NCBI GenBank assembly: GCA_965178125.1
Contig: OZ237761.1
Span: 124,001 to 188,000, forward strand
From: Bilabrum cf. latius
Lineage: Eukaryota
Length of the DNA: 64,000 bases
Direction of reading: 5' to 3'
The translations under genes and the position numbers were made by a program. Of this stretch, positions 1 through 62,510 are shown in pieces (the first letter of the stretch is position 1; each line of letters opens with the position of its first letter). Below the pieces are notes generated by a model. It was not told the origin of the DNA. It worked only from the letters and a program-made list of their open reading frames with translations, and ran no database searches.

Positions 1-2672
1 CGGTGCGCGAATCCCTTGTCGCAATTGCCTTCGATAGCCCGCTTCGACGAATGTCGGATGACCAGCTCAGGCCAGAGTTTGCGGAGGCATGGTCCCTGCT
101 CATGAGAGGCATGCAGGCCGTGCGGCTTGGCACCTTAGTGACCGTCGACCTGTCTCTGGTGTCATCTTCGTTCGTCAGATCGATGTCTTCTCATGGGCCG
201 GCACCAAGCCCATCCGATGGTCTCGGGGGTTCAGATCTGCAAGAGCTTTGTCGCGTCTTATTGCAAGAAGGTGCTGCCACTGCTGCAAATGGTGACAATC
301 CGATAGGCCAGCATCGACCGGCATCTCAAGTGCAGCCTTGCGAGGCACACCGACTTCCTGCGACTGTAGAGTTGCTACTGCAGTGCAAGCAGCCATTAAC
401 TTTGCAGGAGGCCATGGCAAGAGCGGCGTTGATTGGCAAGGCAATGAACCCACCACAATCAGGTAGAGTTGGACAGGGGAGCGGTGCAGCATCCGCCCCC
501 CGGCCAAGCCCATTCGAGATGGCCGTCCGATGGAACTGTTCGGAAACGATTCGGGCTTGGTTGCGCGGAACACTGCAGACGACTAGCAGCTCCTCGAGGA
601 TGGATCCGGGTACTTTGCTCGTTATTCAACTCGGCTTAATCGATGCTACTTTGCGCGATGCTGGTGCAGTAGTAGCTTGCATTCTGCAAGAGTGTACAGA
701 ATTCGTGGAGGTGCTTTATATGGTCGACAACCATTGCCTTCAGTAGCTGGCATCACCGAATGGTGCATCTGAGGGCGAATCACCTACCAGGGAGCGGAGC
801 GACACAATGTGCAGGGATGATTGGAAGCAGCTCATTTCGCAGCGCAAGTGGGAAGAATGGCTCCCAAGCATCAATACATCACACTTCTCCTGCTTGGAGT
901 CAACAGCTTGGAGTATGCACTCTGCTGACGAAGCAAAGGAATCGGTTCGGTTGTTGTGGGCTCTGGTGAATCGCAAGTTCAGCGTCGCTCGTGTCTTCTG
1001 GAGGTACTGCTCCGAGCCTCTGCGGATGGCTCTGTACGCGGCACAGGTTCTGCGGAAGCTAGCAGGCACGGATGATGCAGCGCGCACCATGCTGCTGAGT
1101 GAAGCGGACTGGTACGAACGGTTTGGTATATAGGTGCTCGAGCACGGTGGTACTAGCAGGGACTTCCGTGGGTGGGACAAAAAGGATCGGCAGAACGTTT
1201 CACTGTGGCTTAGGTCCACAGCACCGAGGTCTCAAGTGATATGCGATGCCATTCTTCAGTAGTACTCGGTGTCAAAACACATCGAGCATGGTAGGTGCTG
1301 TTGGTACATGTGTTGGTCTTGCTGTCGGGATATGCCGTCTTGCTGTCAGAGTTGTTTCTGCTGTCGGGATGGCCTGACTCAGGTGACCCGCCTCCACCGC
1401 GGCTCAAACATCATCCGATTGGCTCAACGCTCTGAGTCAATGGAGTTTATGGGCCATCCGGTGGTGCAGAGGCAGCTGCGATGTCTTTGGCGACACAACA
1501 CTTGGGAGAAGCCATCGGGGGGACTGACCACAGTATGGGGATGCTGCCGAGTATGGGACTGCTGTGCAAGCTAGGACTATTCTGCTAGGAACAACTGGTT
1601 TAATGCACCACGCACGCGGTGCTGGTTGCATTCGATTTCTCGGGTTGCCCTCACTATCCTTCATGCTTGGGTGGTTCTTCAACACTACGATGAGCCGCGA
1701 GCTCGGCTATTTCTTCCCATTCTCTTCTTCGTATGGAAGGGCCTGCAGCTTTTGGAGGACAGTCTAGTTGCTGCTAGGCTGGGCATCCACGACATCTCCG
1801 TGTGGGATGCGCTTGGTACTCTTGATTACGCGGCAATGTTTGTAAGCCTAGGGCTGTTCACGGCTGCTGGCATTGGTGACAATGGTATCTTGCACGACTA
1901 TTCGATGGATGTGCTTAGCGTCTCGTTCATTGTGGCGTGCATCCGTCTCCTGGACATCCTCGCAGTCATAGAGTTCTTTGGCCCGATGGTTATCACCATC
2001 AATCGGATTCTCTTTCTGGATATCACGCTGTTCCTTGTCCTCCTGGTAGTATTCGTGGGGGGGTTCGCAGTCACGATCACGGCGATCTTCGTTGTTAGGA
2101 ATCCAGACGCAGGGAACGGTGGGGATTTTTCGGGTCTGGAAGACTTGCTATGGTCCATGTTCGGGGATTGGACCCTACCGCTGTCGAACGCAGACAGAAA
2201 TGAGCACGGCAGTGACTTCTACCTCGGTCTTGGCAAGGCTCTGCTGGGTCTACACATGCTGCTGTCCACCATCGTGATTGTGAACTTGCTCGTGGCCCTG
2301 ATGACCTCCTCGTACGAGAACACGCACAGAGGCGCCCAGCTCCGGTTTAACTTCTCTATGGCGCTGCATGTGCGCAAGCACCGTCTCCTGTCTGCTCTCC
2401 CTGCTCCACTCAATCTGGTTGGTTGGATAGTTGGTAGGTCATGCTGGGAATACGGTTGCAGTTAGAACACTGAAGAAGCAGAGGTGGATGCATCAAGTGG
2501 TGGTCCATCCATCAGTTGGAACTAGGTCTCTCTCGAGACAGGGCAGCAGCTACCTGTCATGCGGGCCCTCAAGGAAGATGAGAAAACCAAGGTCAGGTTC
2601 ACGAGGTATCGAGCCTAGCGGAGGCTTGTGGCGAGACTAGAGGCAGAGGAGAAGAGACAGGAGACCCTGTGA
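1..2672 (+). CDS. TRPM-like cation channel, copy 1 (5' part outside the window); read through 7 in-frame TAG codons
   Basis: Track ORFs 3-746, 807-1133, 1269-1574 and 1626-2465 share one frame and are separated only by TAG. First TGA is at 2670-2672. TRP-type features: LLWALV..AR.FW, TM segments, FFGPMVITI, pore LLWSMFG, S6 IVIVNLLVALMTSSY, LPAPLNL. The terminal TGA overlaps a possible GTGAGT donor. Confidence 0.85.
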
Positions 2673-3436
2673 GTCCATCCGAGGCGCGCCAGGCAGTCAT
2701 GCGGGCGGAAATCAGCAGGGCCAAGCCAGCTGCATTTCAGGCGTAAGACCACTGCGGCAATTGGATGATCGCGCGTGCCCAGCACTCCCCGCACGTCTTC
2801 CTCGGTCGGGACTGGCAGGTCGTCGCACACCGCATCTGTCCAGCCTTTAGTACGCGTTTGATGCCCCCGAAGTCCGCCGCACCTGGATTGGCCTGGTAGT
2901 GCAGATTTTCGGTGGAGCAAGCATGGTGACCTAGACCTGGCAAGTTCACTTGCACATCAGGATTGAAGGGACGAGAGCGGCTGTAATCCGGACGTGGAGG
3001 TGGGCACCGACAGCAAGAGAGATTGGAGAGATGAGGCTCGTTAAGGATTGGGACACCGGCACAGGCGACGATAGTGCGGTGTCAATGAAAGGAAACAAGG
3101 AAACAACGGGAGGGGACTTTGGGTACAAGGCACATCTGAATTCCGGATGGGAGACAGGTGGCATTCTCAGAGGCATCGGGCGTAGCCTATATATATCGGG
3201 GGGTATAGCCAGCATCCCAGATTGAGCGGAGCAGATTGACCCAACAGGCAATGGTACCTAGTTACGGGTATTACGTGAATTGAGCAAGTGAAGAAGATGC
3301 ATTTTTTGCTATGTCAGCTATACCCAATCCGATCTGGGTTACAACGTTATTGCGTAAGGGGCAAGGTAAGAATCACTCTTTTTATAGCATGCCCCCCCCC
3401 CCCCCCCCTCCGCCTGCCAGCCCTCAAGTAGACTTA

Positions 3437-3671
3437 TCAGGAATCCGGATCATGCGCGGTACTTGGCCTGACCGTGGGCCAGCAGGCACACAGGTAGCCT
3501 CTTTGCACGAGACTGTTGCTGCCCACGTCTGGCTTCATTGATTCGCCTCCGCCAGCACTCTTTCTGCTGGCACCCTGCAAAGACTTCCTGAGCTCGAATT
3601 CGATGCGGGCCACGGTCCATTGCACTCCCCCCGACCCCGCCTGCACACTACACGAAGGCTCCTTTACCTGC
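3437..3671 (-). pseudogene. 3' remnant of the MaoC-like gene, truncated at the LINE junction
   Basis: Matches the last ~78 codons of the gene ending at 56467. The upstream part is replaced by LINE sequence. Confidence 0.85.
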
Positions 3672-6600
3672 CCGAGGTGAGTTGTGTAGCTAGGATAGCT
3701 ATGCACAACTGGCAGGACTACAACCCCTCGATGGCTCGTCCGAAGCTCTCATTGGCCCTTTGCTACAAGCGTCGGATTGCACGTCGGCACCGTTCTTGGA
3801 GTTGTTCGAGGGTGCCCTGGACGATTGAGAGCTCCAGGGAGTCTGTGTCTCCTCTTTGGACTTGTGTCAGCACCTGCTCCGTTTTGACGTGTTCCATCCT
3901 TAGTGCTCTCCCCACTGCCGTGGGTGCCCAGGGTACGTCCGTGTGCGTGGCTTCCGCGCGCATCATTTCGGCCTGTACCAAGCGTTCTCCACTGTGGTGC
4001 ATGGTCCCTTCCCTAGGGTAATGCCCAGTGAACCATCGTAAGATGAGTCGGCCATCTTGGCCTCGCCAGGTGCTCCGTGCTGTCGCTGGCATGGCCGATG
4101 GACCGAGGATCCGGGAATTGTCCAAACCGATGCAGCTCTGTAGGTGCCTCATGCCTACAGAATCCTCTCGAACTTTGCCCAGGCGTCTGTCGCTACCGAA
4201 TGCATCGTTTCTGCTTCGCGCAGTATACCGGCAGCGTGCGTGCTGGAGCTCGATTTCAGCAGTGCAGTCGCGTCCCGTAGGATATCCCATATACGGGCAC
4301 AGCCACGAGGTGAACGTTCGTTGCTTGCGGTTCTTGGTGTTGAAGATCATCTGCAAGGCGGACTGGTCTCGTGCGCCGTGTTGGCGCCTGTAGACTGCGG
4401 CCATGTTCGCCATAGGTCCCTGGGCACTAGGTTCGTGCTTGACCATGTACCACGCGGTTAACTGCATATGGGCAGGTGTGTCTCCGCTCAGCAGCACCAG
4501 TGAGCACCAGTGAGCACCAGTGACAGCTGTACGCCTGCGAGATTGCTCTGGCCATCGCGTCGGCCGGCCAGACCAGCGCCCTGACCGTGGCCTTCGGCAA
4601 GAAACGGCCGTCTCCTTTCTTAGGAAGTCGGGGGGATGCTTCGACCAGGGCGGCCCTGGCACAGTCTAGGACCTCGTTGACAAAGTTCAAAGCTGCCTTG
4701 TTCCAGACTATACCTGGTACGTAGGTGCATTTCACTGTCTTGCGTTTTAGCTCCTGCTCGAAGCCTGCTGGTGCCGCTGAGAGGTAGAGGTCTTGCAGGA
4801 CCGTCCCGTAAACTGCACTGTACAGGATCGAAGACAGCTGTGCAAGGCTCCAGTCGGAGTTCACGGCTGCTTGGCAGATGTCCGCAATGCTTCGTCTTGC
4901 CTTGCCAGCTTGCCTCTCCACGTGCTTCACTGGGTCCAGGACGTGGAGCTGTCTAGTACTTCCGTCAGCCATTTTGACCGGTGCCCGCCTGGTGTGCAGA
5001 CGGAAGCCGAGGTAGTCGTACTTGTGGACCAGTCGGATTGGCTCAGGTGGGGCCGCGGCTAAAGTACCAGGAAGTTGCTCTTGGATCCTGACGTTGAGCT
5101 CCTCTGGGGTGAATGCAACTGCACGTCCGCTTTCCACGTCGTCGTCCGTTGCTTCGAACGCCTCACGCGCCAGTCCGGTCGCCATTACGGCTGTCTTGCT
5201 TGTGTAGCCATTGTTGACTGCTCTTACGCCCAACTCATGGCCAGACTCATGGTGTCCGATGGAGAGCACTGCTACAGCCGTTAGCGAGCCGCTCTTGCAC
5301 AACATAGTGACGCAGGTGTCGTCCGCGTACAGCGTCTGTGGCTTCTTCTGTGCGATGTCCCAATCGGCTGTCAGCGGTGCCGCTTGCGGTCCTGCGCACG
5401 CCTGCCTGACGTACTCGTTCGCAGGTACCATTGATACCGCGAAGCCATCTGGGGAGATGGGATCTCCCTGGCATGTCCCCTTTCCTCGCTCGAATGGTTC
5501 CGATCGGGTGTTGCTTGGGCGGTGGTACACCTCCGCTTTAGCTTTCATACTGTTGACGAATGCGCTCGAAGCGGTCGCGCTCAGTCCAGCCTTCTTTAGC
5601 GTATACCGCATGATGGGTCACTGGACTCGGTCGAATGCTGCTTTCAAGTCTCCGAACATGAGCACGAGGCCCTGCTTCCCCGCGGTGAAGGTCTGCTGCA
5701 GAATCTTCAGGATCGCGATCACTCGGTCACGGCGCAGCGTGAAGCCAAACTGCGAGGCTCCTTTCGTTTGACGTTGAGCCATAACTTCCTGGCAGTTGCC
5801 GAGCAGAATGTTGCCCAATACCTTTGCAATCTCGTCTGCGTACTGGATGCATCTGTAGTCACTGCATCGGAAGTCACGGTCGTCCGGCTTGCCTTTGAAG
5901 GGTGGCGCAATGAAAGTGCGCAGGAGGGTCAGTGGGTACTATCCGCACACCATTGCGCAGTTGTGGATAGCTTGAAGGGCCTTGAGGAGTGTGTCAGGGT
6001 ACTTGCGTTCTCCGTCGGCGAAATCGAATGTGAGTCTGATTGCGCGTGTTGGCACCCCGCTCGGCCCCGTAGCCTTTCCGGACTTCAACTACTTGATTGC
6101 AGTCGAGATGTGTTCCTCGGCAGCGTCATCGGTCACCAGCATGCCAATTTTCGGGGATGTTGACATGTGTTGGCCCAGGACCTCGATGAATCTTGAGAGA
6201 CCCTCATCAGTGGACGTGTCCACTGTGTTGGCCGTTGCGTTGGTAGCGCTACTGGAGTAGTACGCCGCCTGGGCGTCCACTGCCTCCTAGGCATTGGAGG
6301 TCCGTGTCCCGTCTTCGCGGTCCACCGTTGCAATAGCTCGTTGCTTTGATCTTCTGGCCCCGAGTTGGCTCGATATCGTGCGGTACGCCTCGCGGGCAGG
6401 TAGGACCTTCAGAGCCTGTTGGAGTGCGTGGGCATCGCAGCGGATACGATCTCTGGTGAGACGTGTCACTGATATCGTGTCACTTCCTGCAGCCGCAACT
6501 ACTCGTTGAAGCACCATCTTGTTCGCGAGGTTGCTCGGTTGTAGGTCTGCGGGGGCCAGGGAGACAGTGCAGTCGGGAGCAGATGCTTGCCCCAATCGCA

Positions 6601-9330
6601 ATTGGTCGCTACCCTAGCCTGTACCCGTCGTCGCAGTTTGCTGATCCTTTTGATCATGGCGTTGGCCTCTGGGCACTTGCCAGACCCAATCTCCCTTAGT
6701 AACGTCTCGCGCCTGTCTGCGTGCTTGCTTTTGATCTTACGCAGCAGGGAGGCAGCTGTGTCCCGGATACAGACAGTCTCAGTCAGAAGGGATGCGTCCT
6801 TGTGTCGCTGGAGTCTTGCTCTTTGGGCCCTTTTTACCATGCGAGAGATCTTCGCACGGTGCTGGAGGCGGCTGCGTGGGGCTGCTTGTTGGCGCTGGGC
6901 TGGTCCAACCGCGGCCCCGCAGGCTTTGGAGTCACAGACTGCCAGCGTGGAGACCAGATGTTCCAATACTGTCGTGGCTTGGCCAAGGATGCTGGCCTTT
7001 TCATCTCCTCCCGCTCCCGAGTCTCCACCTAGTGTCAGGGCTGCTGTGCTCGCCTGCTTGCTCAGGTCCATCAGCTATGGCTATTCGGCCAGCAACTGTG
7101 CCATCTTCCTGCGGTATCGGCGGACTTGGGCTTTGGTACGTGGTCTCCGTAGCTTGTCTGGCGCCGTGTCTAGGGTAGCACTTGGATCGTTGTAAACTTG
7201 TGACCTGGTAGTCTCTACCCTCATGGCTACGGGTGAGTGATCCTAAGATCCGGGATTTCGAAGGACTGCACCTCCTGTCCAGAGCGCTGACCCAGCGAGG
7301 CCCACGTCTAGGCAATTACCTCCGCCATGTGTTGGCATCCACGGGGTCCGAAGGCTCAGACACGGTTCACCGTCCTCCCTGGTGGGGGCGTCCTCCATGA
7401 TGTCCGCTTCTCGGTGCGTGTTCAGGTCGCCAATCAAGACGGTCTGATCCAGGTCAAACTCGAACCTTTGCCCATTGCTTGTAGTCCAACCTGTTTGCAT
7501 GCACCTAAGTAGGCGCTTATAGTCCCCGCGATGCTCGCCGTCGAGGGGGTTGTAGCATCCAACTGCGTGAACTGTGCGGCTCCCTGCGACTGTCACATTG
7601 ACGATGAGGCAGTCCCGGATGTCCTGGGGCATATCTGCTGGCTGAATGGGGCAGAACTTGGTCATTAGTCGTGGGTTTGTGTTCCAGACCGCTGCAACCC
7701 CATGAGTGCCTCCTTCCGTGGGTGTTAGCCACACGCCTCTGTACGTCAGGTTTGGCACTGCAAGTGGCAGTAGCTTCTGGTCCATGGACGAGTCAGAGCT
7801 TCGGCCGTACTCCGTCATGAACAGCAAGTCAGGGGCTTGCGTTAGTTGGAGTGCACGCTCGATGGTACTCAGTTTCCTCGACTTGTTGACGTTCAGGTGG
7901 CCGCAGCGGAATTCTTGGGGGCGATGTGCCGCTTCCCAGGTAGTGGTCTAGTGCTTGGCAAGAGTCATTTCGTTCTCAGGAGTCATCTACTTGTGTGAGA
8001 TGGCACGGACTGTCTAGGCTGGGTCATCTCGGGCTTCTATCTCATGTCGCCGGTACTCTCGGTGTTCCCTGATGCGTCGTGATGGTGTGATGGTCCGTCT
8101 TGTCCCCGCGTATCCGACTGTGGACCGGTTCAGGTAGTCGCGGTTGCCGATCGCCGCTGTCTCCGGCCGACCTCGGCGGTCAGAGGAGAAAGCTGGCACC
8201 TCCAGTGTGCCGTTCTTACATTGTCTGTATAGTTCTCTGTCGTGCTAGTCCACGAGCTCGGACTCGCTGCCCTCGCAAAGGCTCTTGAAGAGGCTCTCCG
8301 AGGGGAACATGTCGTATGCCACTCTTGGTAGTTCCCGTCCGGCAATCTTGTCGAATGATCCTGCGTTGATCGACTTGGCCAGGGCTGCACGTTGCGCCTT
8401 CGAAGGGCTGCCCCAGAATCCTACTGCTGCGATGAACTTGTGTCCAAGACGTGGGCCTGGAGCTTTGTCGAACTTCGCCGGTGCGTAGGAGCCCAGGGTT
8501 AGACGTCGGAGTGTATTCGCAGAGATGTCCTCCCTGGTACCGTTTGCTACGCCGTCGACGTACAGGTATGGAGTCCTCTGTTCGCTGGCCATGGCCGTCG
8601 GCGAGGCCTTCATCGTGATGATCGAAGCGGCGTGGTCTATGCTGAGCAGGAGGACTCGAGAGGGAAGCTTCAGGTCAGGACCGTCGATGGCCCTTCTCAT
8701 GCTGTGTAGGAGGCTGGATACGCCCATGTCTGGGCTGGCCACCATTGGTCTGCACCACGTGTGGTCGTATCCATCCGCCGAGGCAAGGCGGGCCACTGCT
8801 GTCAGCATCCTCCCAATGGTGGTGCACCTATTTGCCGAGACGATGCAGTTGTCCGAGTCCTACAGGCGGCATGCCTACTGCATTGAGAGGGGGACAGCGC
8901 TGACGACCTGAAGGGCAAGCGTATGACACTGTTTAGCTGGGAGCCTGTACGATCCGACGACATGGTCTCCGGAGCTCTACCAATCCAGGAGGGCCTCTCC
9001 AGACGGGATGGGGCCCCCGTTGAGCTCGGCCATCGTCTCCACTGCGGACTTCATGTCCTCATCGGATGGGTGCTGGCTCGCCAGGGTGTCTTCTGTTGCA
9101 GCCTTTTCTGCCACGTTGTAGTTGGTGCCCAAAGTTCTGCACTTGACGCTGGGACAGGCGGTGCGTCGTCGTGTGTCAGGGCCACTGGTTCGTGCGGGAG
9201 GTCGAGCTCAAGTCCGTGTCTTGCGTAATCCAGAGCAGTTGAGTCTTGGGCAATGCACGCGGCCGAGGGTTTGCTCAGCAATATCCGGGGCATCGTTCGA
9301 GCGTTGACCAGCGCCTGAGGTCCTCTACGT
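3672..9330 (-). mobile_element. Non-LTR retrotransposon (APE endonuclease + RT), degenerate, 3'-truncated; 5' boundary approximate
   Basis: With TAG read-through one frame runs from ~9200 to ~6600 and contains APE motifs HLNVN, FMTE, IGDLN, CLD, DHSPV. RT motifs follow: KSGKATGPSG, DYRCI, DLKAAFDRV, QGDPISP, YADD, YLG. Lesions: frameshifts near 6600 and 4500, and a TGA at 5618-5620. Confidence 0.9.
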
Positions 9331-9341
9331 GGCTAAACTGA

Positions 9342-11649
9342 TGTTGTCTGCATTCCCATGAGGAAGTAGTGACCTCCAGTGGTATCAGTCCCATCGAGAG
9401 TCTGGGCACGCATGGCTACGCGAGCACGGCGGAGCGCAACATGCAGGCACTTCCGGTTTGGCTCTTGCAACCGGCTACTGGGCACCTGGTGTCCTACGCA
9501 GATGATGAAAGAGCCATTGTGCAAGACAAGCGAGGCGCTGCTATCGCTACGGTCGCCGCACAACTCAATCACGAACTGTCCGGGGGAAAGCTCGGGTATC
9601 GAAAGCCCAAGAACGGCAAGGGAAGCAAGACGGCCATCCTTGCCACAGGTAGAGCATTCAACTCATTCGGACTCACGGAGGACCAAGTCCGCTCGGGAGC
9701 GACTGCTATCTCCATCGAGGACCAGAAGCAGGCACTGGAAGAACTGAATGCGAAAGGCCTGAACCCAGCCCAACTCACGCCCGTCTTCGAAGAGATCCCG
9801 ATGGTGCTCTCATACGACTACCTAGGCGTCCTCATCTCTACCAAGCCGGTGGAAGTGAACCATACCGATGGATCCCAAGAGACACTGCGGCTGCTTGACC
9901 TCATGCCGCACGTGCATAGGCGCTGCGCGATGGCTGAGACCAGCATCAAGAGAATATCCAATGCTGCAATCAACAGCGACTGGAGCATCGAGCAGTTCTC
10001 CACCATCCTCTTCCAAGCAGTAGTGGGAACTGCCCTAGACGGCATCCACGCGGTGGCCGCGTGCACGGACCCCCCCGAGGTGCGAAGACCAGAATCTTAC
10101 AAGGACTAGCAAACTGGTACGAAGAAGGACGGCTCACACAACTACAAGCCAAGGTACAACAGCAAGGCTATCAGCAGGATTCAGAAAACTCTGGACACCG
10201 CCCGCCATGCCATTGCCTCCGGCATGGGCTGTGAACGCCCACAACGTGTGGACACCATGTTCCTTGGGGCCACCATGCTCCGACACCTCATCTGGGCACC
10301 GAGCGCCCTGACAAGAGCGGATCTCGCTACATACCGGGCAGCAGTGGACCGGATCAGTGAGGACTCCTTCGACCTCATTAGATACTCACTGTGGAAGTTG
10401 ATGGAAACGAACGAAATCTAGGGGACCAACCTTCCATGTGGGCCCCTCAGAAACATGGCAGCCATCCTCGTGCAGACACATGGCAATGCCCTGTAGGTGC
10501 TCAATCTAAGGACAACCACCAAGACAGACCGAGCGGTCCATACCGAGAGCTTCAAGGCCGTGCTGCACCATCGCAGTCTGGACAGATAGTGCCCGAAAAT
10601 GCACGAGACAAGCTCGCATGCTGAAAAGTACGCAAGGCTCTTCGATAAACACCCAGGTGGAAGGCGTGCGGGACTAAGCGACCTACTTGGAGTCTCCCAT
10701 GCACAGTGGTTTGGACCGAAGTGCATCCCACGAACGGTACGTACGGGACTGCCGGGAGCCGATTCTCGCCGTCTCCTCCGAAGACTGACAGGATACTACC
10801 CTAGGGCCTGCAGTGCCTCGGACAAGACCAAGGAACACGTCCTGGAATGCATGACGCAAGCAGAGTCCCTGCACAGCGCTTCAACAATTCCATGGCAGGC
10901 CACTGAGGCAGGCAGGAAAACGTGGATCAACAGTGTGACAAGCACGGACCCATGGCTCGCGAATGAACCCACAATCCGGGAGAAGCTGAGTGAGGTGGAT
11001 CGCCGCAGTACGTGGTCTCTGAAACGTCTCATTCGACACTTCCTCGCAAGGAATCCGGAGCTGGACACTACTTGCCCGCAGATTGCAGCTGTACAAGCCT
11101 TCCTCGAGGAGTCTCCGACTGTTCGCCGCAAGGCACTCTCCCTGGGAATACCCTTACCGCTGGCTATCTCCTGCCAGATACCCGGGGTGGAGACAAGCAT
11201 TGGATCGTGGTCCTCTGGCTCTACCTAGCGCAAGGTGCTCAGACGCCTAGAACGCCGACTCGACAAGGCATGGACAGTTCGGCTCGCCTCGGCAGCACAT
11301 GCCACCTCACAACTCAGAGACGAATTCATGGCCACTCTATCACGCCGACGTGCGTGGTGGCGGCGACCTGAAACATTGACGGTGCAGGCAGCATCAATCG
11401 CGATCTGCCCATCACCGTTCGCGTTCCCCAGATACTAAAGCAGTTTTGGGGGATACCGGTGCCACAGCGACCGCTGTGGTTGGGTGCGAGGGCTTGTCCC
11501 GCAACAACCCGCCTGTTTGGAATTCTGCTTTTACTATGTTAGGTGTTCTACCGCACAGTACGAGTAGTTTTTCGGATTTTCGAGTTGTGTGTTTGTACAC
11601 TATCGTGAATTGCATCTTAAACCAGAATTTCCTTCCTTCCTTCCTTCCT
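9342..11649 (+). mobile_element. 5'-truncated non-LTR retrotransposon of a related family (RT C-terminal half), with (TTCC)n tail
   Basis: Single frame 9342-11438 with 5 TAGs, ending in TAA. Contains YADD and YDYLG and is clearly similar to the minus-strand LINE (AINSDWS vs AVNSDWS). TTCC repeats at 11629-11649. Confidence 0.85.
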
Positions 11650-29791: not shown

Positions 29792-29965
29792 GTCATGGGT
29801 GAACTAGAGATACCAGCTACAAGTGAAATCCTTGGCATAGTGGGAAAGGGGCGCCCACAACTGGATCGGATGGGATGGGATGCCGGGAGGTCGACAGGAG
29901 TTGTGTGATGGTTGGTTGATGGGTATAGATACTTCTAAATCATTGATACGATCTAAGAGTAGCAT

Positions 29966-30238: not shown

Positions 30239-30308
30239 TCTATCAATATATATGATCCATTCTTTATATGGTTTTAAATAGTTTTTATTATTTAAAATCA
30301 ATTTAGGT

Positions 30309-51601: not shown

Positions 51602-54600
51602 GATTCCTACCACTGGTGTAGTGGAGCTTTAGCGGAACGAGGGTGTCCTGGCGACATCGCCGACGTAGTCTTGGGGGGGGAGGGAGTGCTGGATCAGATC
51701 AAAACAAAATGGGACTTCAAGGATGTACCAGGCGAGTTGTACAGTATAACAGGTGGTGCCGATCTTGCAGGTATGTCTCGCGATCACCAGGCTGCTTTTG
51801 TGCACGGAATAGCAGCCGCAGTTGGCTCCAACGGATCATGGGTAATCACAGGAGGCTCGGACGCCGGAATCATGCAGCTTGCTGGAAAAGCACATTTTGA
51901 TGCAGCATTATATTCACCGTGCATTGGAATCGCAGCATTAGGCAAGGTGTTCAATACTTCCAAGGAGATCCGACAAGTCGATAAAGGCGGCGAGACTCCT
52001 ATATAGTATAAACTCTCTGAGCCCCCTTTCAGGGGTGCTACCAAGGAGGAACACAAAACCCGACTGAACCCTGATCACACGCATTTCATTTTTGTTCGAC
52101 CTCCTGTAGGACGAAAAATATCGAAGTGGGGGGACGACAACAATTTTCGCGAGGCCCTCGAAGGGGAGATCGCAAAGACCGCCTTCACGGTGCAGGTGGT
52201 CGCAAGCGGGGGCCCCGAGACCATGAAGACCGTGTCCAGCGCGGCCCATGCCAAAATCCCGATCGTGCTTTTCAAGGGATCTGGGCGAGCCTCTGACGTC
52301 CTCTGCAAACTGAGTGCCCATGCTGAGCATTTGAGCGAGTTGGACGACTCGTGCCCCCGCGGCTGGTGCCCGGATGGCGCCAAGCACACTGCAGCATTGA
52401 TGGGCAAAGATCACTATCAATACCCAAATGTCAACGTTTTCGATCCGATGAGCATCGAGGTCTGGAAAACAACGAAGCCACTCACTGCGTGCATCCCTGG
52501 CAAAGTGCTACAATGGATGGCGACGAGGTCAAATCCACCAAATCTCGACGATTTCGACAAATACTGTGCCAACGGGTGGGGAGCATGGACAACTACCAGC
52601 AGGACGTATGAAGATTGGCTGGACAGGCATGTGCGGTCGCGGCCAGTTGCTGCTAGATCTGGCAACGGTCAAGCGGCAGACGGGCAAGCGGCAGGCGGGC
52701 AAGCGGCAGGCGGGCAAGCGGCAGACGGGCAAGCGGCAGGTGGGCAAGCGGCAGGCGGGCAAGAACCAGGCGGACATCGGCATCTAACCAATTCAGATAT
52801 CGAGAATCTTTGGTGCTGGTGCGTGCATATACACCTCCTGCACATGGGTGCGATCCTTCGAGTCAAGCGTAGGGGCGATGAAGCAACGGGTACGTGGAAT
52901 TCACCGCGGCGAAGCAGTATCACCCACCGCGTTATGTCGAGAGCTGCAAGCACCCCTAGTGCTCCTTCGGGGCACTACTCAAGCATTCGCATCACGCCCG
53001 ACATGAACGACGACAGTCTCAAGGTCAGGGACACGGTGCGCGAATCCCTTGTCGCAATTGCCTTCGATAGCCCGCTTCGACGAAGGTCGGATGACCAGCT
53101 CAGGCCAAAGTTTGCGAAGGCATGGCCCCTCCTCATGAGAGGCATGCAAGCCGTGCGACTTGGCACCTTAGTGACTGTCGACCTGTCTCTGGTGTCATCT
53201 TCGTTCGTCAGATCGATGTCTTCTCATGGGCCGGCACCAAGCCCATCCGATGGTCTCGGGGGTTCAGATCTGCAAGAGCTTTGTCGCGTCTTATTGCAAG
53301 AAGGTGCTGCCACTGCTGCAAATGGTGACAATCCGATAGGCCAGCATCGACCGGCATCTCAAGTGCAGCCTTGCGAGGCACACCGACTTCCTGCGACTGT
53401 AGAGTTGCTACTGCAGTGCAAGCAGCCATTAACTTTGCAGGAGGCCATGGCAAGAGCGGCGTTGATTGGCAAGGCAATGAACCCACCACAATCAGGTAGA
53501 GTTGGACAGGGGAGCGGTGCAGCATCCGCCCCCCGGCCAAGCCCATTCGAGATGGCCGTCCGATGGAACTGTTCGGAAACGATTCGGGCTTGGTTGCGCG
53601 GAACACTGCAGACGACTAGCAGCTCCTCGAAGATGGATCCGGGTGCTTTGCTCGTTATTCAACTCGGCTTAATCGATGCTACTTTGCGCGATGCTGGTGC
53701 AGTAGTAGCTTGCATTCTGCAAGAGTGTACAGAATTCATGGAGGTGCTTTATATGGTCGACAACCATTGCCTTCAGTAGCTGGCATCACCGAATGGTGCA
53801 CCTCAGGGCGAATCACCTACCAGGGAGCGGAGCAACACAATGTGCAGGGATGATTGGAAGCAGCTCATTTCGCAACGCAAGTGGGAAGAATGGCTCCCAA
53901 GCATCAATACATCACACTTCTCCTGCTTGGAGTCAACAGCTTGGAGTATGCACTCTGCTGACGAAGCAAAGGAATCGGTTCGGTTGTTGTGGGCTCTGGT
54001 GAATCGCAAGTTCAGCGTCGCTCGTGTCTTCTGGAGGTACTGCTCCGAGCCTCTGCGGATGGCTCTGTACGCGGCACAGGTTCTGCGGAAGCTAGCAGGC
54101 ACGGATGATGCAGCGCGCACCATGCTGCTGAGTGAAGCGGACTGGTACGAACGGCTTGGTATATAGGTGCTCGAGCACGGTGGTACTAGCAGGGACTTCC
54201 GTGGGTGGGACAAAAAGGATCGGCAGAACGTTTCACTGTGGCTTAGGTCCACAGCACCGAGGTCTCAAGTGATATGCGATGCCATTCTTTAGTAGTACTC
54301 GGTGTCAAAACACATCGAGCATGGTAGGTGCTGTTGGAACATGTGTTGGTCTTGCTGTCGGGATATGCCGTCTTGCTGTCAGAGTTGTTTCTGCTGTCGG
54401 GATGGCCTGACTTAGGTGACCCGCCTCCACCGCGGCTCAAACATCATCCGATTGGCTCAACGCTCTGAGTCAATGGAGTTTATGGGCCATCCGGTGGTGC
54501 AGAGGCAGCTGCGATGTCTTTGGCGACACAACACTTGGGAGAAGCCATCGGGGGGACTGACCACAGTATGGGGATGCTGCCGAGTATGGGACTGCTGTGC

Positions 54601-55705
54601 AAGCTAGGACTATTCTGCTAGGAACAACTGGTTTAATGCACCACGCACACGGTGCTGGTTGCATTCGATTTCTCGGGTTGCCCTCACTATCCTTCATGCT
54701 TGGGTGGTTCTTCAACACTACGATGAGCCGCGAGCTCGGCTATTTCTTCCCATTCTCTTCTTCGTATGGAAGGGCCTGCAGCTTGTGGAGGACAGCCTAG
54801 TTGCTGCTAGGCTGGGCATCCACGACATCTCCGTGTGGGATGCGCTTGGTACTCTTGATTACGCGGCAATGTTTGTAAGCCTAGGGCTGTTCACGGCTGC
54901 TGGCATTGGTGACGATGGTATCTTGCACGACTATTCGATGGATGTGCTTAGCGTCTCGTTCATTGTGGCGTGCATCCGTCTGCTGGACATCCTCGCAGTC
55001 ATAGAGTTCTTTGGCCCGATGGTTATCACCATCAATCGGATTCTCTTTCTGGATATCACGCTGTTCCTTGTCCTCCTGGTAGTATTCGTGGGAGGGTTCG
55101 CAGTCACGATCACGGCGATCTTCGTTGTTAGGAATCCAGACGCAGGGAACGGTGGGGATTTTTCGGGTCTGGAAGACTTGCTATGGTCCATGTTCGGGGA
55201 TTGGACCCTACCGCTGTCGAACGCAGACAGAAATGAGCACGGCAGTGACTTCTACCTCGGTCTTGGCAAGGCTCTGCTGGGTCTACACATGCTGCTGTCC
55301 ACCATCGTGATTGTGAACTTGCTCGTGGCCCTGATGACCTCCTCGTACGAGAACACGCACAGAGGCGCCCAGCTCCGGTTTAACTTCTCTATGGCGCTGC
55401 ATGTGCGCAAGCACCGTCTCCTGTCTGCTCTACCTGCTCCACTCAATCTGGTTGGTTGGATAGTTGGTAGGTCATGCTGGGAATACGGTTGCAGTTAGAA
55501 CACTGAAGAAGCAGAGGTGGATGCATCAAGTGGTGGTCCATCCATCAGTTGGAACTAGGTCTCTCTCGAGACAGGGCAGCAGCTACCTGTCATGCGGGCC
55601 CTCAAGGAAGATGAGAAAACCAAGGTCAGGTTCACGAGGTATCGAGCCTAGCGGAGGCTTGTGGCGAGACTAGAGGCAGAGGAGAAGAGACAGGAGACCC
55701 TGTGA
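51602..55705 (+). CDS. TRPM-like cation channel with N-terminal SLOG domain, copy 2; 10 in-frame TAGs; 5' end unresolved
   Basis: One frame with no TAA or TGA from 51584 to 55702. SLOG motifs SITGGA, WVITGG.DAGIM, CIGIA, LNPDHTHFIFV, GSGRASD, followed by the TM region as in copy 1. Confidence 0.9.
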
Positions 55706-56466
55706 GTCCATCCGAGGCGCGCCAGGCAGTCATGCGGGCGGAAATCAGCAGGGCCAAGCCAGCTGCATTTCAGGCGTAAGACCACTGCGGCAATTGGATG
55801 ATCGCGCGTGCCCAGCACTCCCCGCACGTCTTCCTCGGTCGGAGCTGGCGGGTCGTCGCACACCGCATCTGTCCAGCCTTTAGTACGCGTTTGATGCCCC
55901 CGAAGTCCGCCGCACCTGGATTGGCCTGGTAGTGCAGATTTTCGGTGGAGCAAGCATGGTGACCTAGACCTGGCAAGTTCACTTGCACATCAGGATTGAA
56001 GGGACGAGAGCGGCTGTAATCCGGACGTGGAGGTGGGCACCGACAGCAAGAGAGATTGGAGAGATGAGGCTCGTTAAGGATGGGGACCAGGGGACACCGG
56101 CACAGGCGACGATAGTGCGGTGTCAATGAAAGGAAACAAGGAAACAACGGAAGGGGACTTTGGGTACAAGGCACATCTGAATTCCGGATGGGAGACAGGT
56201 GGCATTCTCAGAGGCATCGGGCGTAGCCTATACAGCCAGCATCCCAGATTGAGCGGAGCAGATTGACCCAACAGGCAATGGTACCTAGTTACGGGTATTA
56301 CGTGAATTGAGCAAGTGAAGAAGATGCATTTTTTGCTATGTCAGCTATACCCAATCCGATCTGGGTTACAACGTTATTGCGTAAAGGGCAAGGTAAGAAT
56401 CACTCTTTTTATAGCATGCCCCCCCCCCCCCCCCCCCCTCCGCCTGCCAGCCCTCAAGTAGACTTA

Positions 56467-58401
56467 TCAGGAATCCGGATCATGCGCGGTACTTGGCCTG
56501 ACCGTGGGCCAGCAGGCACACAGGTAGCCTCTTTGCACGAGACTGTTGCTGCCCACGTCTGGCTTCATTGATTCGCCTCCGCCAGCACTCTTTCTGCTGG
56601 CATCCGTCGAAGACTTCCTCAGCTCGAATTCGATGCGGGCCACGGTCCATTGCACTCCCCCCGACCCCGCCTGCACACTACACGAAGGCTCCTTTACCTG
56701 CTTCTTTGGCTTGCTCGGCGTGTCACTTTCAATACTGACCTCTTTGCCAGACTCGTCGCCAACTTCGAGCTCATCTACTCCTCCACTTTTTCCATCGCCA
56801 TTTGCAGACAGTATGCCGTCCAGCACGTGTCGTCCCACGGCTGCCCCGCGACGCATTGATTCCTCGACAGCCTCCATGGCTTGCTGCAGGCTGGGGACAG
56901 CGAGCATGCGATGCTCGCCATGTGCTCCCTAAGCCCTATTGTTCTGAGCACCGTCATCACTGCCATTGCCACCAGATCTGCTAGCACCATCCGATGACGC
57001 CGCCGAGTTCCCGCCACCTGTGGGCCCCTCCGCGGTCCACTGCGTGGCACTCCCCTCCTAGGCGCACTCGTCATCCGCAAGTTGAGCCAGGGCGAGCGCC
57101 TCCTCTCCCTCGGACCAGCGGGTCACCACCAGCTCCAGGGCACGGCCAAGGACGGCCGGCCGCCGGAACATGGTGCCGAACTGCACCACGGGTGCGGGCG
57201 CGGTGCCTCTCGACGCCATGTTGCGGCGCCACTGCGGCTTCCCCGTGCCCATCGAATCTACCCTCACAGTGCGATGCAGCCGGTCAAGCATTGCTCCGAT
57301 CAGGTGAGGCATGGCCAGGTCCGCGGCAGCCACGCCGTGCGAAATGGCGCCCCGCTGTCCCATGAGCGGAGCGAGCCAGCTGGACGTGTGGATGGGATTA
57401 TAGTCACCGCATAGCTTGGCGTATCGCCGGCCCATGTCTAGCGGAGGTTTGATGGTCGCGATAGTTTCCTCTAGGCACTTGCTCAAGCTTGTGCTCGCCT
57501 GCTCGGTCGAGGCTGGCTGACCAAACCTGTCGCGGCCACTGCCTTCCGGTTCTGGGTCAACCGAAGCGCCCTTCTTGGTTGAAAATGCACCCCTCTCGTT
57601 CGATTCGGCTCGTTTGCTTGCAGTGCTAGCATTAGATGGCGCCGACGACACCCGATCAGCGCGTGCTGGCTGCTCCTTTGGCCCAGTCTTGTTCGATCTC
57701 GAATGGAAGAAAAGGAGACGCGTGCTGCTAGCAAAAACAATGTGCTCAGCTCTTGACTTGTTCGCGCTATCGCTGGTAGCTTTTGGCGTCACGGTCGTGT
57801 TGGCGACGGCAGAGAGGATCGAGCCCCGCTTGTGGAACTTTGGCTTGGTCGCACCGACCGAGATCTGAAGGGGCGACGTGGCTGAAACTGATCCGTCCAA
57901 TGGGTGCGCAATCGCAACGCAGTGCATTCCAAGCTTTACGCTTCCCAGCAGTGGAAACTATACCATTGGGGAGCACAGCAAGCCTACCATAGCGCGCTAA
58001 GTAGCAACATCAAGCAAAAGAAGCGGACAGCCCCCATTTCGATCGCTCTGTGAGCTAGCGCCAGAATATCGTGGCGATACTGATTGCTGCCGTAGCTTTT
58101 CCAGGCAACGCTTTGCCTTACACGTCGGTACTACATCATTGGCTTGAAACTACTGATCAGGCGGGACAGGTGCTAACCTATTTGCAACCCCTGCAAGACC
58201 CCAAGAGCGCAAAATCGAAACAAGAAATGGAAGCACTATTGAACTTTGGGCCTCTCGGACAAAGCTGCCTCCGCCGCCGTAGAGGAGTTGCCGAGATTTA
58301 ATTCCAGGGTTGGGCCAAAAGCACGCCAGCAAACCCGCGAACGCCAGGCACAAACACGTTGTACCTATGGAGATATACAGTACGTCTTGCTCATCATACA
58401 T
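56467..58401 (-). CDS. MaoC-like (hot-dog fold) dehydratase with N-terminal hydrophobic segment; 5 TAGs; start 58401 or 58506
   Basis: Track ORFs 58150-58506, 57058-57927 and 56467-56907 are in frame and broken only by TAG. Motifs YAKLCGDYNPIH and ISHG; TGA stop. Confidence 0.8.
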
Positions 58402-58523
58402 GGCTTCGACTGGTCTGTGCAAAATGAAAGACCGGTCTACTCGGTGGCGCCGCGCATTACTGAAATGGTTCCGCAAAATGCCCCGATTGATTGTGTTCCA
58501 GTCCATTCTAACTCGATTTCACC

Positions 58524-59337
58524 ATGGCGATGAAAAGACTGTCAAAAGAAGCAAGGAAAATGAGAGACTGTGACGCTGATGGGGTTTCAGCCGAGCCTAT
58601 TGATGATTCTTTGGTGCGATGGACAGCCAAGATTGAGGGCCCAGAGGATACACCATACGAGGGAGGCACATTCGATCTAGATGTCCAGTTTCCAGCTGAT
58701 TATCCAATGAAGCCGCCATCAATCACGTTCACTACCAAAGTATACCACGTGAGGGCGCTGCATACATACATGCATTACCTGTTCCCGATCTCACGATTCT
58801 TGTTTGCTTTCAGTCTTCTGTGCACCTCCATTGGCGTTGTTGACATCCATTTCTCGGGCAATTTTTATTTTCTTTGTACAAGCTGGTGTGCCCTGGCTTA
58901 TCGCCCGATCTTTCTTTGCACTGTGCTGCACTCCGTGTCGTTCTCGTGCCACGCCTTCCGGAAGACATGTAGTTTGTTGCTTAAAGCTGTGTTACATGCA
59001 CCAGATCGAGGTGGTATGCGGCAGACCAAGAAGAATGCACGCCCATGTGCATGTCCATGCTGCCGGTCCGGCTCCCTAAGCTGCCCCTTCCATCTCTAGC
59101 CTTGTCTCTTCTTTGCAGCCCAACGTGACGAGCGACGGAAAGATCTGCTTGGACATTTTGAAGGACGCCTGGACGCCACAGTACTTCCTTGACAGCGTGC
59201 TCGTCTCCATCCGCATGCTGTTGGAGGAACCGAACCCCTCGGCGGCCTTGGAGCCGGATGTCGCCAAGCAGTACACTGACGACAAGGCCGCGTTTGACAA
59301 GACAGCCAAGGAGTGGGTCGAGAAGTACGCGTCTTGA
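58524..59337 (+). CDS. Ubiquitin-conjugating enzyme E2 (Ubc4/5-like); intron 58749-59118
   Basis: Spliced sequence KVYHPNVTSDGKICLDILKDAW contains HPN and the catalytic Cys. Donor GTGAGG, acceptor TTTGCAG. Confidence 0.95.
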
Positions 59338-59855
59338 GTGCATTGCAGTGCATTGCAGTGCGTTATAGTGCAGTACGCACCACTCGTTCAACACCGGCTG
59401 CTGCATGCGACACACGGTAAATCCTTAGGTTGGCTTGGGCAAGGGCAAGTGGTGGTGGGGGGGGGGTTTCTGGGGATGGGATTGAAGGGTAGGATGGGGG
59501 ATGGTGGGTGGTTGGTTGCACCGAATGAGGGCACAAATTTCATGGTTAGGCCGATGGAAGATTAACATGTCATGATGATAAGGCAGTGCCCCTGTGATGC
59601 GCAAGGCGGCTGCTGTGGTGGTGCTGCAGAGGGGGGAGGGGGGGCAATGCGCTGTCTTCTTCTAGGCAGAGGGAGCTTTGTGAGAGATAGGGCTCGCGTT
59701 GAGGTGTCCAAGATGCATGAATGTCATTTGCAGCGAAGTGCATTTCGTAGGTATCCTTAGGATGCGTTCACCCGAGAGGTGCACTGCATTCAAGCTGCGG
59801 AGCCAAATTATTCCGGCTGGATGATACGTACACAAACAACACGCGAAGTACAACC

Positions 59856-61046
59856 ATGAACGAGATCATTTGGTACGCCCCTGCCGCCTTAGTCTTAGTT
59901 ATTCTTGCATTGGTTTTGATCGTTGTAGCTGAGGGAATATACGTAGCCTTGACAACTCAGATGCTGCCGTCACCTCCGGATGCACCTCGAGGGGTTTTCA
60001 GCGAGACTGATGGCGAAATTAAGATGCAAGCCGTCAAGAATAGCCTACTATCCGATAGTCCCGTAAAGCCATCCTCGGATGTACCTGTTCGTGTTCTCGT
60101 TATCGGAGATAGCGTAGTAGAAGGGACAGGCTTGGAATCAACTGGACATCAAAGCACGATTGCACCGCACTTTGTGCGCGCATTAGGAAGGTTTCTGCTT
60201 CAACTCCGCAAAAAAGTCCGTAAGGACGCGCTAGACGCCTTGAAATAGTCAGATGAAGAGCAAAAGGTCGACTCAGATGTCCGGGCTACCTGTAGTACGC
60301 ATCTTCGTATTGCGTGGGAAGCCGTCGGAAAAGCGGGTGCCACATCTGAAAGCATTTATAAGAGGCTACGGAGGCGTATCAGTGCCGCGATTGATCGCTT
60401 GGGAGGAGATCGGATCGACTTGGTTGTGGTGTCGGCGGGAGTAAATGATGTTATTCGGGGCCGCTCGCCTGCGTCCTACGGAACAGACATGGAGCGGCTG
60501 CTTCGGTGGGTGCAGGATGAGTGTCCTAATGCCGTGGTCGAGGTGCTGGGTCGCCCTCCGTTGTACCAGTTCCCCCTATTGCCATTCCCAATGAACTTCG
60601 CGGTGTACTGGTATGCTGGCCTCTTCTTCAACCAGGCCAAGCAGGTGGCTGCCATGCTGACTGAGGAGGCCAAGGGAAGGGAGCTGAAGATGAAGGATGA
60701 GTACACCTGCTCTGACGCTCCTGTGGATTCGCCTGCGGGCAGCAACAGCAGCCTCACCCCCATCGCAAGCAAGAGCCCAATGCACGCTACCACTAGTAGT
60801 GAGGAGGAAGAAGAGAAAGGCAAGAGCAAGACCCCAAAGTGGTCGCAACCGAAGCAGGGGGTATACTATATCCCGTGCAGGCACGATGTTCCCCTGCGAG
60901 AGGGAGAGACGAGAGAGGACATCATGGCCGCCGATGGATTCCACCCGAATGTCCCCGTGCTGCGGTGCCTGGCCAAGGACGGGATCGAGACGGTCGTGCC
61001 TAGGGAGAGGTGGGAGCGGCTCATGCACGAGAAGCACTTGGCGTGA
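59856..61046 (+). CDS. SGNH/GDSL hydrolase with N-terminal TM/signal anchor (1 TAG)
   Basis: Blocks GDS, G.AG, GVND and DGFHP lie in one frame across the TAG at 60246-60248. Confidence 0.88.
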
Positions 61047-61226
61047 GGTTTAGACTGTGAGTGTGGCCCCTGCGATCAGGGTCATCCAGCCAGTGCAATG
61101 ACTGGCAGCAGTGCAGTGCTGGCCCACTTGCGGATCCGATCGTCGTCATCATCACACTAGGCTATTCAAAATAGCACAGGCATTTTCCATTACATTGAGG
61201 TGTACAAATAGGCTATTTCTCATAGA

Positions 61227-62510
61227 ATGCCAAAGCGAAGAATAAAGAATGATGCTCTGCGTGCTCCGACGAAGGTACAATGGGGGTCAGCTCCTGAGAG
61301 ACCATTTGACCCCAGCGCTGCAGTGCAGATTGATCGAAAGGAGCACCCAACCACCGAATTCCGAACAGTAGCAGACCTCCTGGAGGCACGAATGAAGGCT
61401 ATGTTCGATGGTTTGCAGGAGGCCTAGAAGCGAGATGTTGCAAACAAGACTTTGGGATCAGAATTGACTGCTCGGGGCATCGATCGAATTGCACATCGCT
61501 CGACAGTCTCGCTAGAGGCGGAGAACCCAGCGGATGCTATGCAAGCAAGTAGCGATGATGGCGGTCCGATGCAAATAGGATAGGATGCAAAGTATCTTCT
61601 GGCAAGAGCCGTCGAGCTGTTTGGAATGGACTTAACACGCCGAGCTGCAGTATTCGCTGAGTGGGCACGCCGCGTCAGAGTGCGACGGGAGCACCTGATC
61701 CGGGCGCATCGAACAGATGCTTCCTTAGATTTCTTACTTGATTGCTTCCCTGAGCGTGACGACCCAAAGTACCTGATGCCAATCCGTCGTGGGCGCCGCA
61801 ACGGCAAGTCGAAAGGCAAGGCACGGCCGGGTGTGGGAGCCTCTTCCTCTTCCGCTTCCTCTGCAGCCGATACTGCGCGCGATGGCGAAGGCACAGGAGA
61901 TAGCGATATGGGGGGATCAAGCAGTGGCAGTGACGCAGATGACGAGGAGGAGGAGGAGGAGGAATAGCACGTGGAGCATGGTGCCAGTGGAGCTGGGCAA
62001 GATTCGGCAGCTGCCAGAAAAGGTGGGGGGAGTTCCGCCGCTCCAGTCACCGCGAGCAGCAAAAACAGCAGCAAAAACAGCAGCAGAAACAGCAGCAGAA
62101 ACAGTACCACACAGGATGGGCCGTCAACGATGTCAGCCCCAGGCACCGCAGCACTGCCCCCAGGCTCTGGCAGTAGCCAAATCGCCCTGTCAGGACCCAG
62201 CGGCGCTGCAGCAGGCTCTCTAGCTGGTTCCAGGAATTCGGCCCATGTCGGGGCGGGCGGCAGTAAAGAGGAAGGCCGCAAGGTGAAACGAGCGCGAGTG
62301 GACGGAACTGCCGCTGCCGGGGCAAGTGCTCGAGGCAGTGGGCGAGCAGCCCTGGTGTCTGGTGGCAGATCATCCGGATTCGGAGGAAGCAAGCCGGAAG
62401 CTGGGCTAATTGAAGTTTAGTCCACAAAGGCGACACATGGGGCGAGCAGCAAAGTTGGTGCATCTGGAGGCATCGAAGTGGAGGAGGACTCGAGTGATGA
62501 CGGCGATTGA
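61227..62510 (+). CDS. Histone-fold protein (NF-YC/POLE4/DPB3-like) with low-complexity tail; 4 TAGs
   Basis: Sequence IG*DAKYLLARAVELFGMDLTRRA...RR.RVRREHL...LDFLLDCFP; TGA at 62508-62510. Confidence 0.72.

Follow-up and report, generated by a model that had tools for sequence, protein, structure and literature searches.

Does a nuclear genome in which many reading frames are broken by TAG still use that codon to end its proteins, or has UAG become a sense codon while the two other stop codons kept their role? The question is raised by a stretch of 64,000 nucleotides from Bilabrum cf. latius (contig OZ237761.1, positions 124,001 to 188,000), which we analyzed as a whole and call the window. 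We read it as nuclear DNA of a GC-rich, intron-bearing and transposon-rich eukaryote in which UAG is very probably read as an amino acid, most probably glutamine (Gln), with UGA as the main terminator and UAA unused inside genes. TAG as a nuclear sense codon had been proposed in an initial annotation made from the letters and their open reading frames (ORFs), and the proposal is supported along four independent lines, by counts of stop codons in spans bounded by homology, by transcript-type contigs, by purifying selection between duplicated genes and by a metagenomic relative, L001.

In-frame TAG in conserved genes

The gene that carries most of the argument encodes a TRPM-like cation channel and is present twice.

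51584-55705, forward strand: TRPM-like cation channel gene, copy 2; with TAG as sense a single ORF of 1373 codons, 10 in-frame TAG, TGA end
3-2672, forward strand: TRPM-like gene, copy 1; the 3' 889 codons of a gene cut by the window edge, 7 in-frame TAG, TGA end

The TAG codons of copy 2 start at 52004, 53777, 54164, 54290, 54293, 54413, 54605, 55496, 55556 and 55649. Pfam places LSDAT_euk at amino acids (aa) 35-249 of its product (E=1.6e-23), TRPM2 at aa 797-865 (4.5e-07), Ion_trans at aa 1054-1260 and YVC1_C at aa 1116-1294 (2.4e-06), and 805 proteins of a 50%-identity library match it at E<=0.001. Essential motifs had been said to stand on both sides of the TAGs, and this is what the gene has, with LSDAT_euk and the channel (aa 1054-1294) in one frame. 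A search with the C-terminal half among shorter proteins returned only three fragments, already known, and a look-up of protein clusters brought up no names. Two library proteins, P0036 and P0038, stop exactly before the TRPM TAG positions 732 and 861, as expected of standard-code gene calling in a relative. The two copies belong to a segmental duplication (1-3866 against 53036-56722) in which the TRPM 3' half is 99% identical, and the duplication seems to reach the downstream spacer (3453-3866 against 56483-56722, 97% over 73 aa).

L001 is a single locus of 6012 nt and 56% GC, found by a scan of Joint Genome Institute (JGI) metagenome contigs; the locus scan of genome contigs found no relative. 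Its TRPM-like ORF runs for at least 1549 codons from the open 5' end of the contig, with 25 in-frame TAG and no TAA or TGA inside, and ends TGA TGA. Because L001 carries this many TAGs at 40-50% identity to the window's TRPM protein over conserved parts, the TAG-sense trait is common to the window and a fairly distant relative.

TAG-sense ORFs hold no in-frame TAA or TGA by construction. For a count that is not circular, stop codons were taken only in spans with both ends fixed by homology in one frame, as follows.

TRPM-like gene, aa 35-1294: 7 TAG, 0 TAA, 0 TGA
L001, aa 301-1437: 17 TAG, 0 TAA, 0 TGA
SGNH/GDSL hydrolase gene, aa 125-410: 1 TAG, 0 TAA, 0 TGA
The three spans together, 2683 codons: 25 TAG, 0 TAA, 0 TGA

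The remaining five frames of the two TRPM spans, in the window and in L001, hold 137 TAG, 53 TAA and 221 TGA. CAA occurs almost as often as CAG in the homology-bounded spans (45 against 51), so codons ending in A are not avoided, and a sense TAA would be expected about 20 times. TAA as common in frame as TAG, which the initial annotation had named as a finding that would speak against it, was not seen.

The whole window points the same way. Under the standard code its longest ORFs have 590, 570 and 549 codons, and with TAG as sense they grow to 1373, 1011, 913, 889, 838, 698 and 683 codons. The 13 TAG-sense ORFs (7776 codons) hold 56 TAG, 152 CAG and 114 CAA and no frameshifts, and their GC content by codon position shows a coding pattern (e.g. 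0.58/0.48/0.59). TAG makes up about 0.7% of codons in coding regions, conserved domains included. GC of the window is about 56% overall and 50-67% across 4-kb bins, and the trinucleotide TAA (575) is rarer in it than TAG (1061) or TGA (1898). With TGA as sense, ORFs of 1736, 1719, 1662, 1306, 1278 and 997 codons appear, all between 43119 and 48326; these were ruled out as genes, being an artefact of an 88-bp satellite (43310-48239), and their codon-position GC is flat (0.66/0.65/0.66).

The TAG counts first given for individual genes were all reproduced (TRPM 10, the ORF called a hAT transposase 9, MaoC 5, the long interspersed nuclear element (LINE) 5, histone fold 4, SGNH 1). "At least ten unrelated genes" was an overcount, as six or seven families can be named; nine further ORFs in the window match no Pfam family. 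Besides the TRPM pair, an all-against-all comparison of the window's ORFs yielded only low-identity or non-coding repeat pairs, which were not used for the residue. The other genes and elements on which the argument draws are these.

56467-58401, reverse strand: MaoC-like (hot-dog fold) gene; 644 codons from an ATG at 58401, 5 in-frame TAG, TGA end followed by TAA
58524-59337, forward strand: ubiquitin-conjugating enzyme E2 gene; two exons, no in-frame TAG, stop TGA 59335-59337
59856-61046, forward strand: SGNH/GDSL hydrolase gene; 396 codons, 1 in-frame TAG (60246-60248), TGA end
61227-62510, forward strand: histone-fold (HF, NF-YC-like) gene; 427 codons, TAG at 61425, 61581, 61965 and 62418, TGA end
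25226-28261, reverse strand: ORF first called a hAT transposase; 1011 codons, 9 in-frame TAG, TAA end 25226-25228, TGA two codons on
4256-9207, reverse strand: LINE-type retroelement copy; 16 TAG, with an endonuclease-like ORF at 6466-9207 (11 TAG) and a reverse transcriptase part at 4256-6736 (5 TAG)
9342-11438, forward strand: diverged LINE copy, 3' fragment; 698 codons, 5 in-frame TAG, TAA end 11436-11438

Contigs of public sequencing runs bear on whether the TAGs persist in transcripts. Eight runs from four studies contain the TRPM stretch or part of it, and the contigs of four (X5, X6, X7 and X8) were compared with 51000-62600. In X5, X6 and X8, which come from two studies, a spliced E2 contig joins 58748 to 59119 and skips 370 nt, at depths of 272, 31.5 and 41.3; in the bin with the intron the depths fall to 12, 1.38 and 1.81, exactly the share of the 17 exon bases in it, so that the intron itself is uncovered. 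Contig depth varies several-fold between adjacent genes, and the gap between the MaoC-like and E2 genes is also uncovered. On these three grounds we infer that X5, X6 and X8 are transcript assemblies. The MaoC contigs (X5, 56454-58415; X8, 56454-58406) are collinear with the window without a difference and cover all five TAGs, and a contig of X5 (59844-62501), again without a difference, covers the SGNH TAG and the four HF TAGs. TAGs spliced or edited out of transcripts, another outcome that had been set against a sense reading, were thus not seen for these 10 TAGs, and splicing or editing is excluded for them at the level of contigs.

The TRPM copies add evidence of selection. They differ at 26 of 2670 bases, with 10 synonymous and 14 non-synonymous differences and two in which copy 1 has CAG and copy 2 has TAG. 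When TAG is counted as Gln, the ratio of non-synonymous to synonymous change (pN/pS) is 0.37, with significantly more synonymous differences than expected (binomial P=0.012); with TAG as glutamate (Glu) it is 0.51 (P=0.078), and with TAG as a separate state 0.50 (P=0.070). Purifying selection between these TAG-bearing paralogues is thus weak but significant.

The residue at TAG and the remaining stop codons

To score the residue, BLOSUM62-based log-odds were summed over the TAG columns, with the following result in bits: Q 9.9, E 6.5, R 2.2, K 2.0, S -4.1, Y -7.0, L -11.3 and W -20.7. The score stays the same when the SGNH column and another two from L001 are included. The 11 pairs in which TAG in TRPM or in L001 faces a residue in the other read A, E, Y, Y, R and Q one way and L, D, Q, T and R the other, so that Q stands opposite TAG in 2 of the 11, once in a conserved block (GHPVVQ / GHPIV-TAG). 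No TAG is aligned with tryptophan (Trp) among the LSDAT rows and the L001 pairs. Judged from these alignments, glutamine is probably the residue read at TAG. The earlier wording, "probably Gln," holds to that extent: Gln has the top score, and the sole two differences between the TRPM copies that involve TAG, at 54290 and 54413, are both CAG/TAG; it is not proven, and Glu is the runner-up.

That UAG is sense with another residue, likeliest Glu, known from peritrich ciliates, Blastocrithidia and the ciliate PL0344, is unlikely, though it survives better than any other alternative. If only distant homologues are considered, E (3.7 bits) and K (2.2) come ahead of Q (1.1), and in the LSDAT column of 151 aligned rows E is the commonest residue opposite TAG (E 20, gap 19, K 13, N 11, T 10, Q 6). 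The comparison of the TRPM copies still yields a pN/pS of 0.51 under Glu. Neither TAG difference between the copies, however, is GAG/TAG, Q/TAG pairs fall in conserved blocks with L001, and Q leads by 3.4 bits overall. Leucine (Leu), serine (Ser), tyrosine (Tyr) and Trp all score negative.

UAG might instead be ambiguous, sense inside genes and a stop at some gene ends according to context, as in Condylostoma, karyorelicts and Amoebophrya sp. ex Karlodinium veneficum; we hold this for somewhat less probable than Glu. A TAG does lie 10-69 codons before the final TGA or TAA in several ORFs (LINE 10, TRPM 17, HF 29, "hAT" 68, LINE fragment 69), and a genuine TAG stop followed by a 3' untranslated region would look alike. 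We scored the eight ORF tails that run from the last TAG to the TGA or TAA by codon usage, as in-frame against off-frame log-odds trained on gene bodies. The pooled tails score 0.147 per codon (n=668), against 0.156 for gene bodies, and the 58-100 in-frame codons past each TGA or TAA score -0.035 (n=736; Mann-Whitney P=1.7e-8 against the tails). The difference holds (P=0.004) for the six short tails that are left once MaoC and SGNH, whose last TAG stands well before the end of the gene, are set aside. The last three TRPM segments score 0.22, 0.16 and 0.29. The coding signal is weak in the tails of the "hAT" and LINE ORFs (0.07, 0.01 and -0.11), which would suit an ambiguous codon, but the base that follows TAG is unbiased (G 13, C 12, T 11, A 9). 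Ambiguous codes with all three stops in frame are further marked by TGA and TAA inside many genes; the window has one such TGA, in a frame-shifted LINE, and none in cellular genes. A dual role of TAG in cellular genes is unlikely here.

That TGA remains a stop codon, as first proposed, is shown directly by the E2 gene. Its structure (exon 1 at 58524-58748, a GT..AG intron at 58749-59118, exon 2 at 59119-59334) is matched by Pfam UQ_con, which splits exactly at the splice site, with profile positions 1-72 in exon 1 and 73-139 of 140 in exon 2, and the TGA sits 6 residues past the end of the profile. TGA also ends the TRPM copies, MaoC, SGNH, HF and L001. The case for TAA is less direct, and only part of the original claim about gene ends can be kept. 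TAA does close ORFs at 11436-11438, 17206-17208 and 25226-25228, two of which are transposon-type while the third belongs to no known family, and it is absent in frame though CAA is common; the TAA placed at 18823 closes no verifiable gene, and no identified cellular gene ends in this way. From its absence in frame and its place at the ends of these three ORFs we infer that TAA acts as a terminator.

A code in which UAA and UAG are both reassigned, of the code-6 type seen in ulvophytes, hexamitids and many ciliates, with TAA merely rare at high GC, is improbable. It would account for TAA being the rarest stop trinucleotide in the window and for TGA ending all identified cellular genes. The homology-bounded spans speak against it, having no TAA beside their 25 TAG despite 45 CAA to 51 CAG. 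The longest ORFs of the window stay as they are when TAA is read as sense, so that the in-frame TAA by which such a code would be known is missing, and TAA closes three TAG-sense ORFs.

Still less probable is decay under the standard code, in which CAG or TGG codons of pseudogenes, or of repeats struck by repeat-induced point mutation (RIP), would have turned into TAG. Half of the TAG-bearing codons do lie in transposons or in the duplicated gene, a single transition turns CAG into TAG and has done so twice between the TRPM copies, and the LINE copy at 4256-9207 is decaying. Even this copy, though, has 16 TAG against one TGA. RIP indices are negative for the window (TpA/ApT 0.64, (CpA+TpG)/(ApC+GpT) 1.32) and for each gene. 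Decay is also at odds with the exclusive presence of TAG in homology-bounded spans, with the intact frames of the TAG-sense ORFs, with the low pN/pS between the TRPM copies and with the lack of TAG opposite Trp. The single-copy MaoC, SGNH and HF genes carry TAGs and occur in transcript contigs, and L001 has no stop codon other than its TAGs in 1549 codons.

That the TAGs are removed ahead of translation, either spliced out as tiny introns or lost through U-to-C editing, is hardly credible: spliceosomal introns do exist in this genome, as E2 shows, but contigs from runs that lack the E2 intron follow the window collinearly and without a difference across 10 TAGs, no TAG disturbs the frame, and conserved blocks have TAGs within them.

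Several observations nevertheless weigh against UAG as a sense codon for Gln with UGA and UAA as terminators. The residue is not settled, Glu being only 3.4 bits behind Gln and, with K, ahead of it among distant homologues. TAG positions fall mostly in variable columns; two adjacent TAGs are aligned with Tyr-Tyr in L001, and a TAG of the HF gene is aligned with alanine in 5 of the 5 NF-YC alignments shown. The codon sample is only about 7800, half of it from transposons. The window has no tRNA gene by ARAGORN and no eRF1 gene, which leaves the decoding mechanism to comparison with other systems. No identified cellular gene with a C-terminus defined by homology ends in TAA. The TGA at 5618-5620 (reverse strand), the only in-frame TGA seen inside any domain match, interrupts a reverse transcriptase motif of the LINE copy (AFDRVQ-TGA-PIM), and it leaves room for occasional read-through of UGA. 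The RNA nature of the runs is deduced from the uncovered intron, no run being recorded as RNA and X5 being marked "probably DNA," and the TRPM contigs in these runs carry copy-1 variants (e.g. C at 54290) and are uninformative on copy 2.

If UAG is read as Gln, the decoder would be a CUA-anticodon tRNA, in the simplest case tRNA-Gln(CUG) with a single base of the anticodon changed, and eRF1 would have lost or weakened its recognition of UAG while keeping that of UAA and UGA. This proposal is modeled on what parts of PMC11687900 and PMC12005148 describe for other stop-codon reassignments. A search of the window against Rfam gave no match.

Relation to known variant codes

To our knowledge, reassignment almost always affects UAA and UAG jointly. 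Lineages with UAG alone reassigned that are named in the relevant parts of PMC11687900 amount to a handful. Those that read it as Gln, the type of NCBI table 15, are the fornicate Iotanema spirale, Protocruzia tuzeti and two phyllopharyngean ciliate lineages, and those that read it as Leu are the uncultured rhizarian exLh and a phyllopharyngean (PMC11687900, in the same parts). Portions of PMC11687900 and PMC8271138 describe the green alga Scotinosphaera, in which UAG is Ser, TAA and TGA are stops and TAG was not found at the end of any gene, and the ciliate PL0344 is described as reading UAG as Glu and UAA as lysine (PMC11687900, in part). UAA and UAG are both Gln, the type of NCBI table 6, in Dasycladales, Trentepohliales, Cladophorales, hexamitid diplomonads, Streblomastix, Amoeboaphelidium and many ciliates, according to portions of PMC11687900 and PMC8271138. 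Ambiguous codes with all three stops in frame are described in Amoebophrya sp. ex Karlodinium veneficum, Condylostoma and Blastocrithidia, and suppressor tRNAs have been inferred for organisms of this kind (PMC12005148, in part).

The window resembles the table 15 lineages in having TAG, and neither TAA nor TGA, in frame in conserved genes, with Gln as the best fit. It is unlike the ciliates among them in its GC content of about 56%, its long intergenic stretches, its LINEs and satellite and its 370-nt GT..AG intron. Ciliate macronuclei are not known to look like such a GC-rich genome that bears LINEs and satellites. With exLh, Scotinosphaera and PL0344 the window shares the decoupling of UAG from UAA, but it differs from the first two in the residue, as Leu and Ser score -11.3 and -4.1 bits; Glu, as in PL0344, may be the residue here. 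Like the codes in which both UAA and UAG are Gln, it appears to read a stop codon as Gln and has TGA as a working terminator; unlike them, it has no in-frame TAA. Like the ambiguous codes, it has in-frame stops in about every second gene or more, kept in transcripts; unlike them, it has only TAG in frame, bar the one TGA of the decaying LINE.

That the window fits the Gln type of NCBI table 15 is supported, and it adds a case to the rare UAG-only reassignments already known, though it may already have been described. In the literature, besides the cited cases, we found no GC-rich non-ciliate with UAG-only Gln in a search that covered main texts. We tentatively suggest that UAG alone was reassigned here independently of ciliates and fornicates, in the GC-rich and transposon-rich genome of a eukaryotic lineage with no known variant code, and that the lineage has free-living or host-associated relatives in environmental data and a TAG-free virus-like element; the odds seem to us slightly against it.

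Another UAG-only lineage, with an ordinary-looking, GC-rich and intron-bearing genome, would be one more case from which to learn how the two codons are kept apart by eRF1 and tRNAs. If the lineage is independent, capture of UAG without UAA would be possible even in a genome whose commonest stop trinucleotide, by a wide margin, is UGA, and it would be a genome-scale system for the question of how eRF1 tells UAG from UAA. There is also a practical side, since standard gene callers cut genes at each TAG, as P0036 and P0038 show, and annotation of this assembly and of its metagenome relatives will be wrong until the code is set.

Mobile elements, the virus-like island and neighboring genes

The retroelements had been described as broken only by TAG. 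This does not hold for the full LINE copy at 4256-9207, which also has the TGA at 5618-5620 within RVT_1 and a change of frame between its endonuclease and reverse transcriptase parts. Its matches are Exo_endo_phos at E=0.0029, under the Pfam cut-off, and RVT_1 at E=2.1e-09, across the TGA. The copy is probably decaying, as its frame changes as well. Its TGA could have arisen from TGG by a nonsense mutation in a dead copy, or it could hint at read-through of UGA, and other reverse transcriptases of elements without long terminal repeats often have Trp or histidine at this position. The LINE fragment at 9342-11438 is 28% identical over 301 aa to one of two shorter fragments.

13201-14484: LINE 3' fragment, aligned over 13201-14481
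3664-4686: LINE 3' fragment
43310-48239: 88-bp satellite; 56 copies, 96% matches, GC skew 0.46

The hAT label of the 1011-codon ORF had rested only on a C-terminal motif and gained no support, the ORF having no Pfam family and no relevant match in PDB.

A lower-GC island at 28700-34000 (GC 0.45-0.50) looks like a decayed virus or polinton-like insert. It has a protein-primed DNA polymerase B in two frames (30309-32083, reverse strand; DNA_pol_B_2, E=3.5e-09) and a D5-like primase-helicase, also in two frames (32077-33234 and 33192-33926), whose ORF found no relative among IMG/VR viral contigs. The island's roughly 1250 codons hold no in-frame TAG, where the host rate would give about 9, and TGA closes its ORFs. 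Beside it, the ORF at 33958-34623 (reverse strand) resembles a chromodomain at its C-terminus (Chromo, E=1.9e-05, slightly short of the Pfam cut-off) and may be the tail of a chromovirus-type integrase.

The cellular genes differ in how well they are known from homology. The MaoC_dehydratas match of the MaoC-like gene is weak, at 23.7 bits where the cut-off is 27, and a search among proteins of near length found no homologue. The SGNH gene matches Lipase_GDSL_2 (E=1.2e-13) and has 31 homologues, all distant (none above 40% identity; best E=3.5e-13), of which the 11 that are named are SGNH/GDSL hydrolases or lysophospholipase-like esterases; three are labeled bacterial. The HF gene has a weak match to CBFD_NFYB_HMF, and its alignment to NF-YC chains in PDB (E=2.2e-4) crosses the TAG at aa 119.

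The MaoC-like and E2 genes are divergent (reverse and forward strand), and their transcript contigs end about 90 bp apart (58416-58506), which suggests a very short promoter region common to both. Tandem stops have been discussed for organisms with reassigned stop codons; here the MaoC-like gene ends TGA TAA (TGA at 56467-56469, reverse strand) and the L001 ORF ends TGA TGA (4648-4653 of its contig). Among the repeats of the window are a 510-bp (GGTGCT)n microsatellite at 21047-21556, a 39-bp tandem array at 36228-37070 and units of about 1 kb at 37100-39900 that are 90-97% identical.

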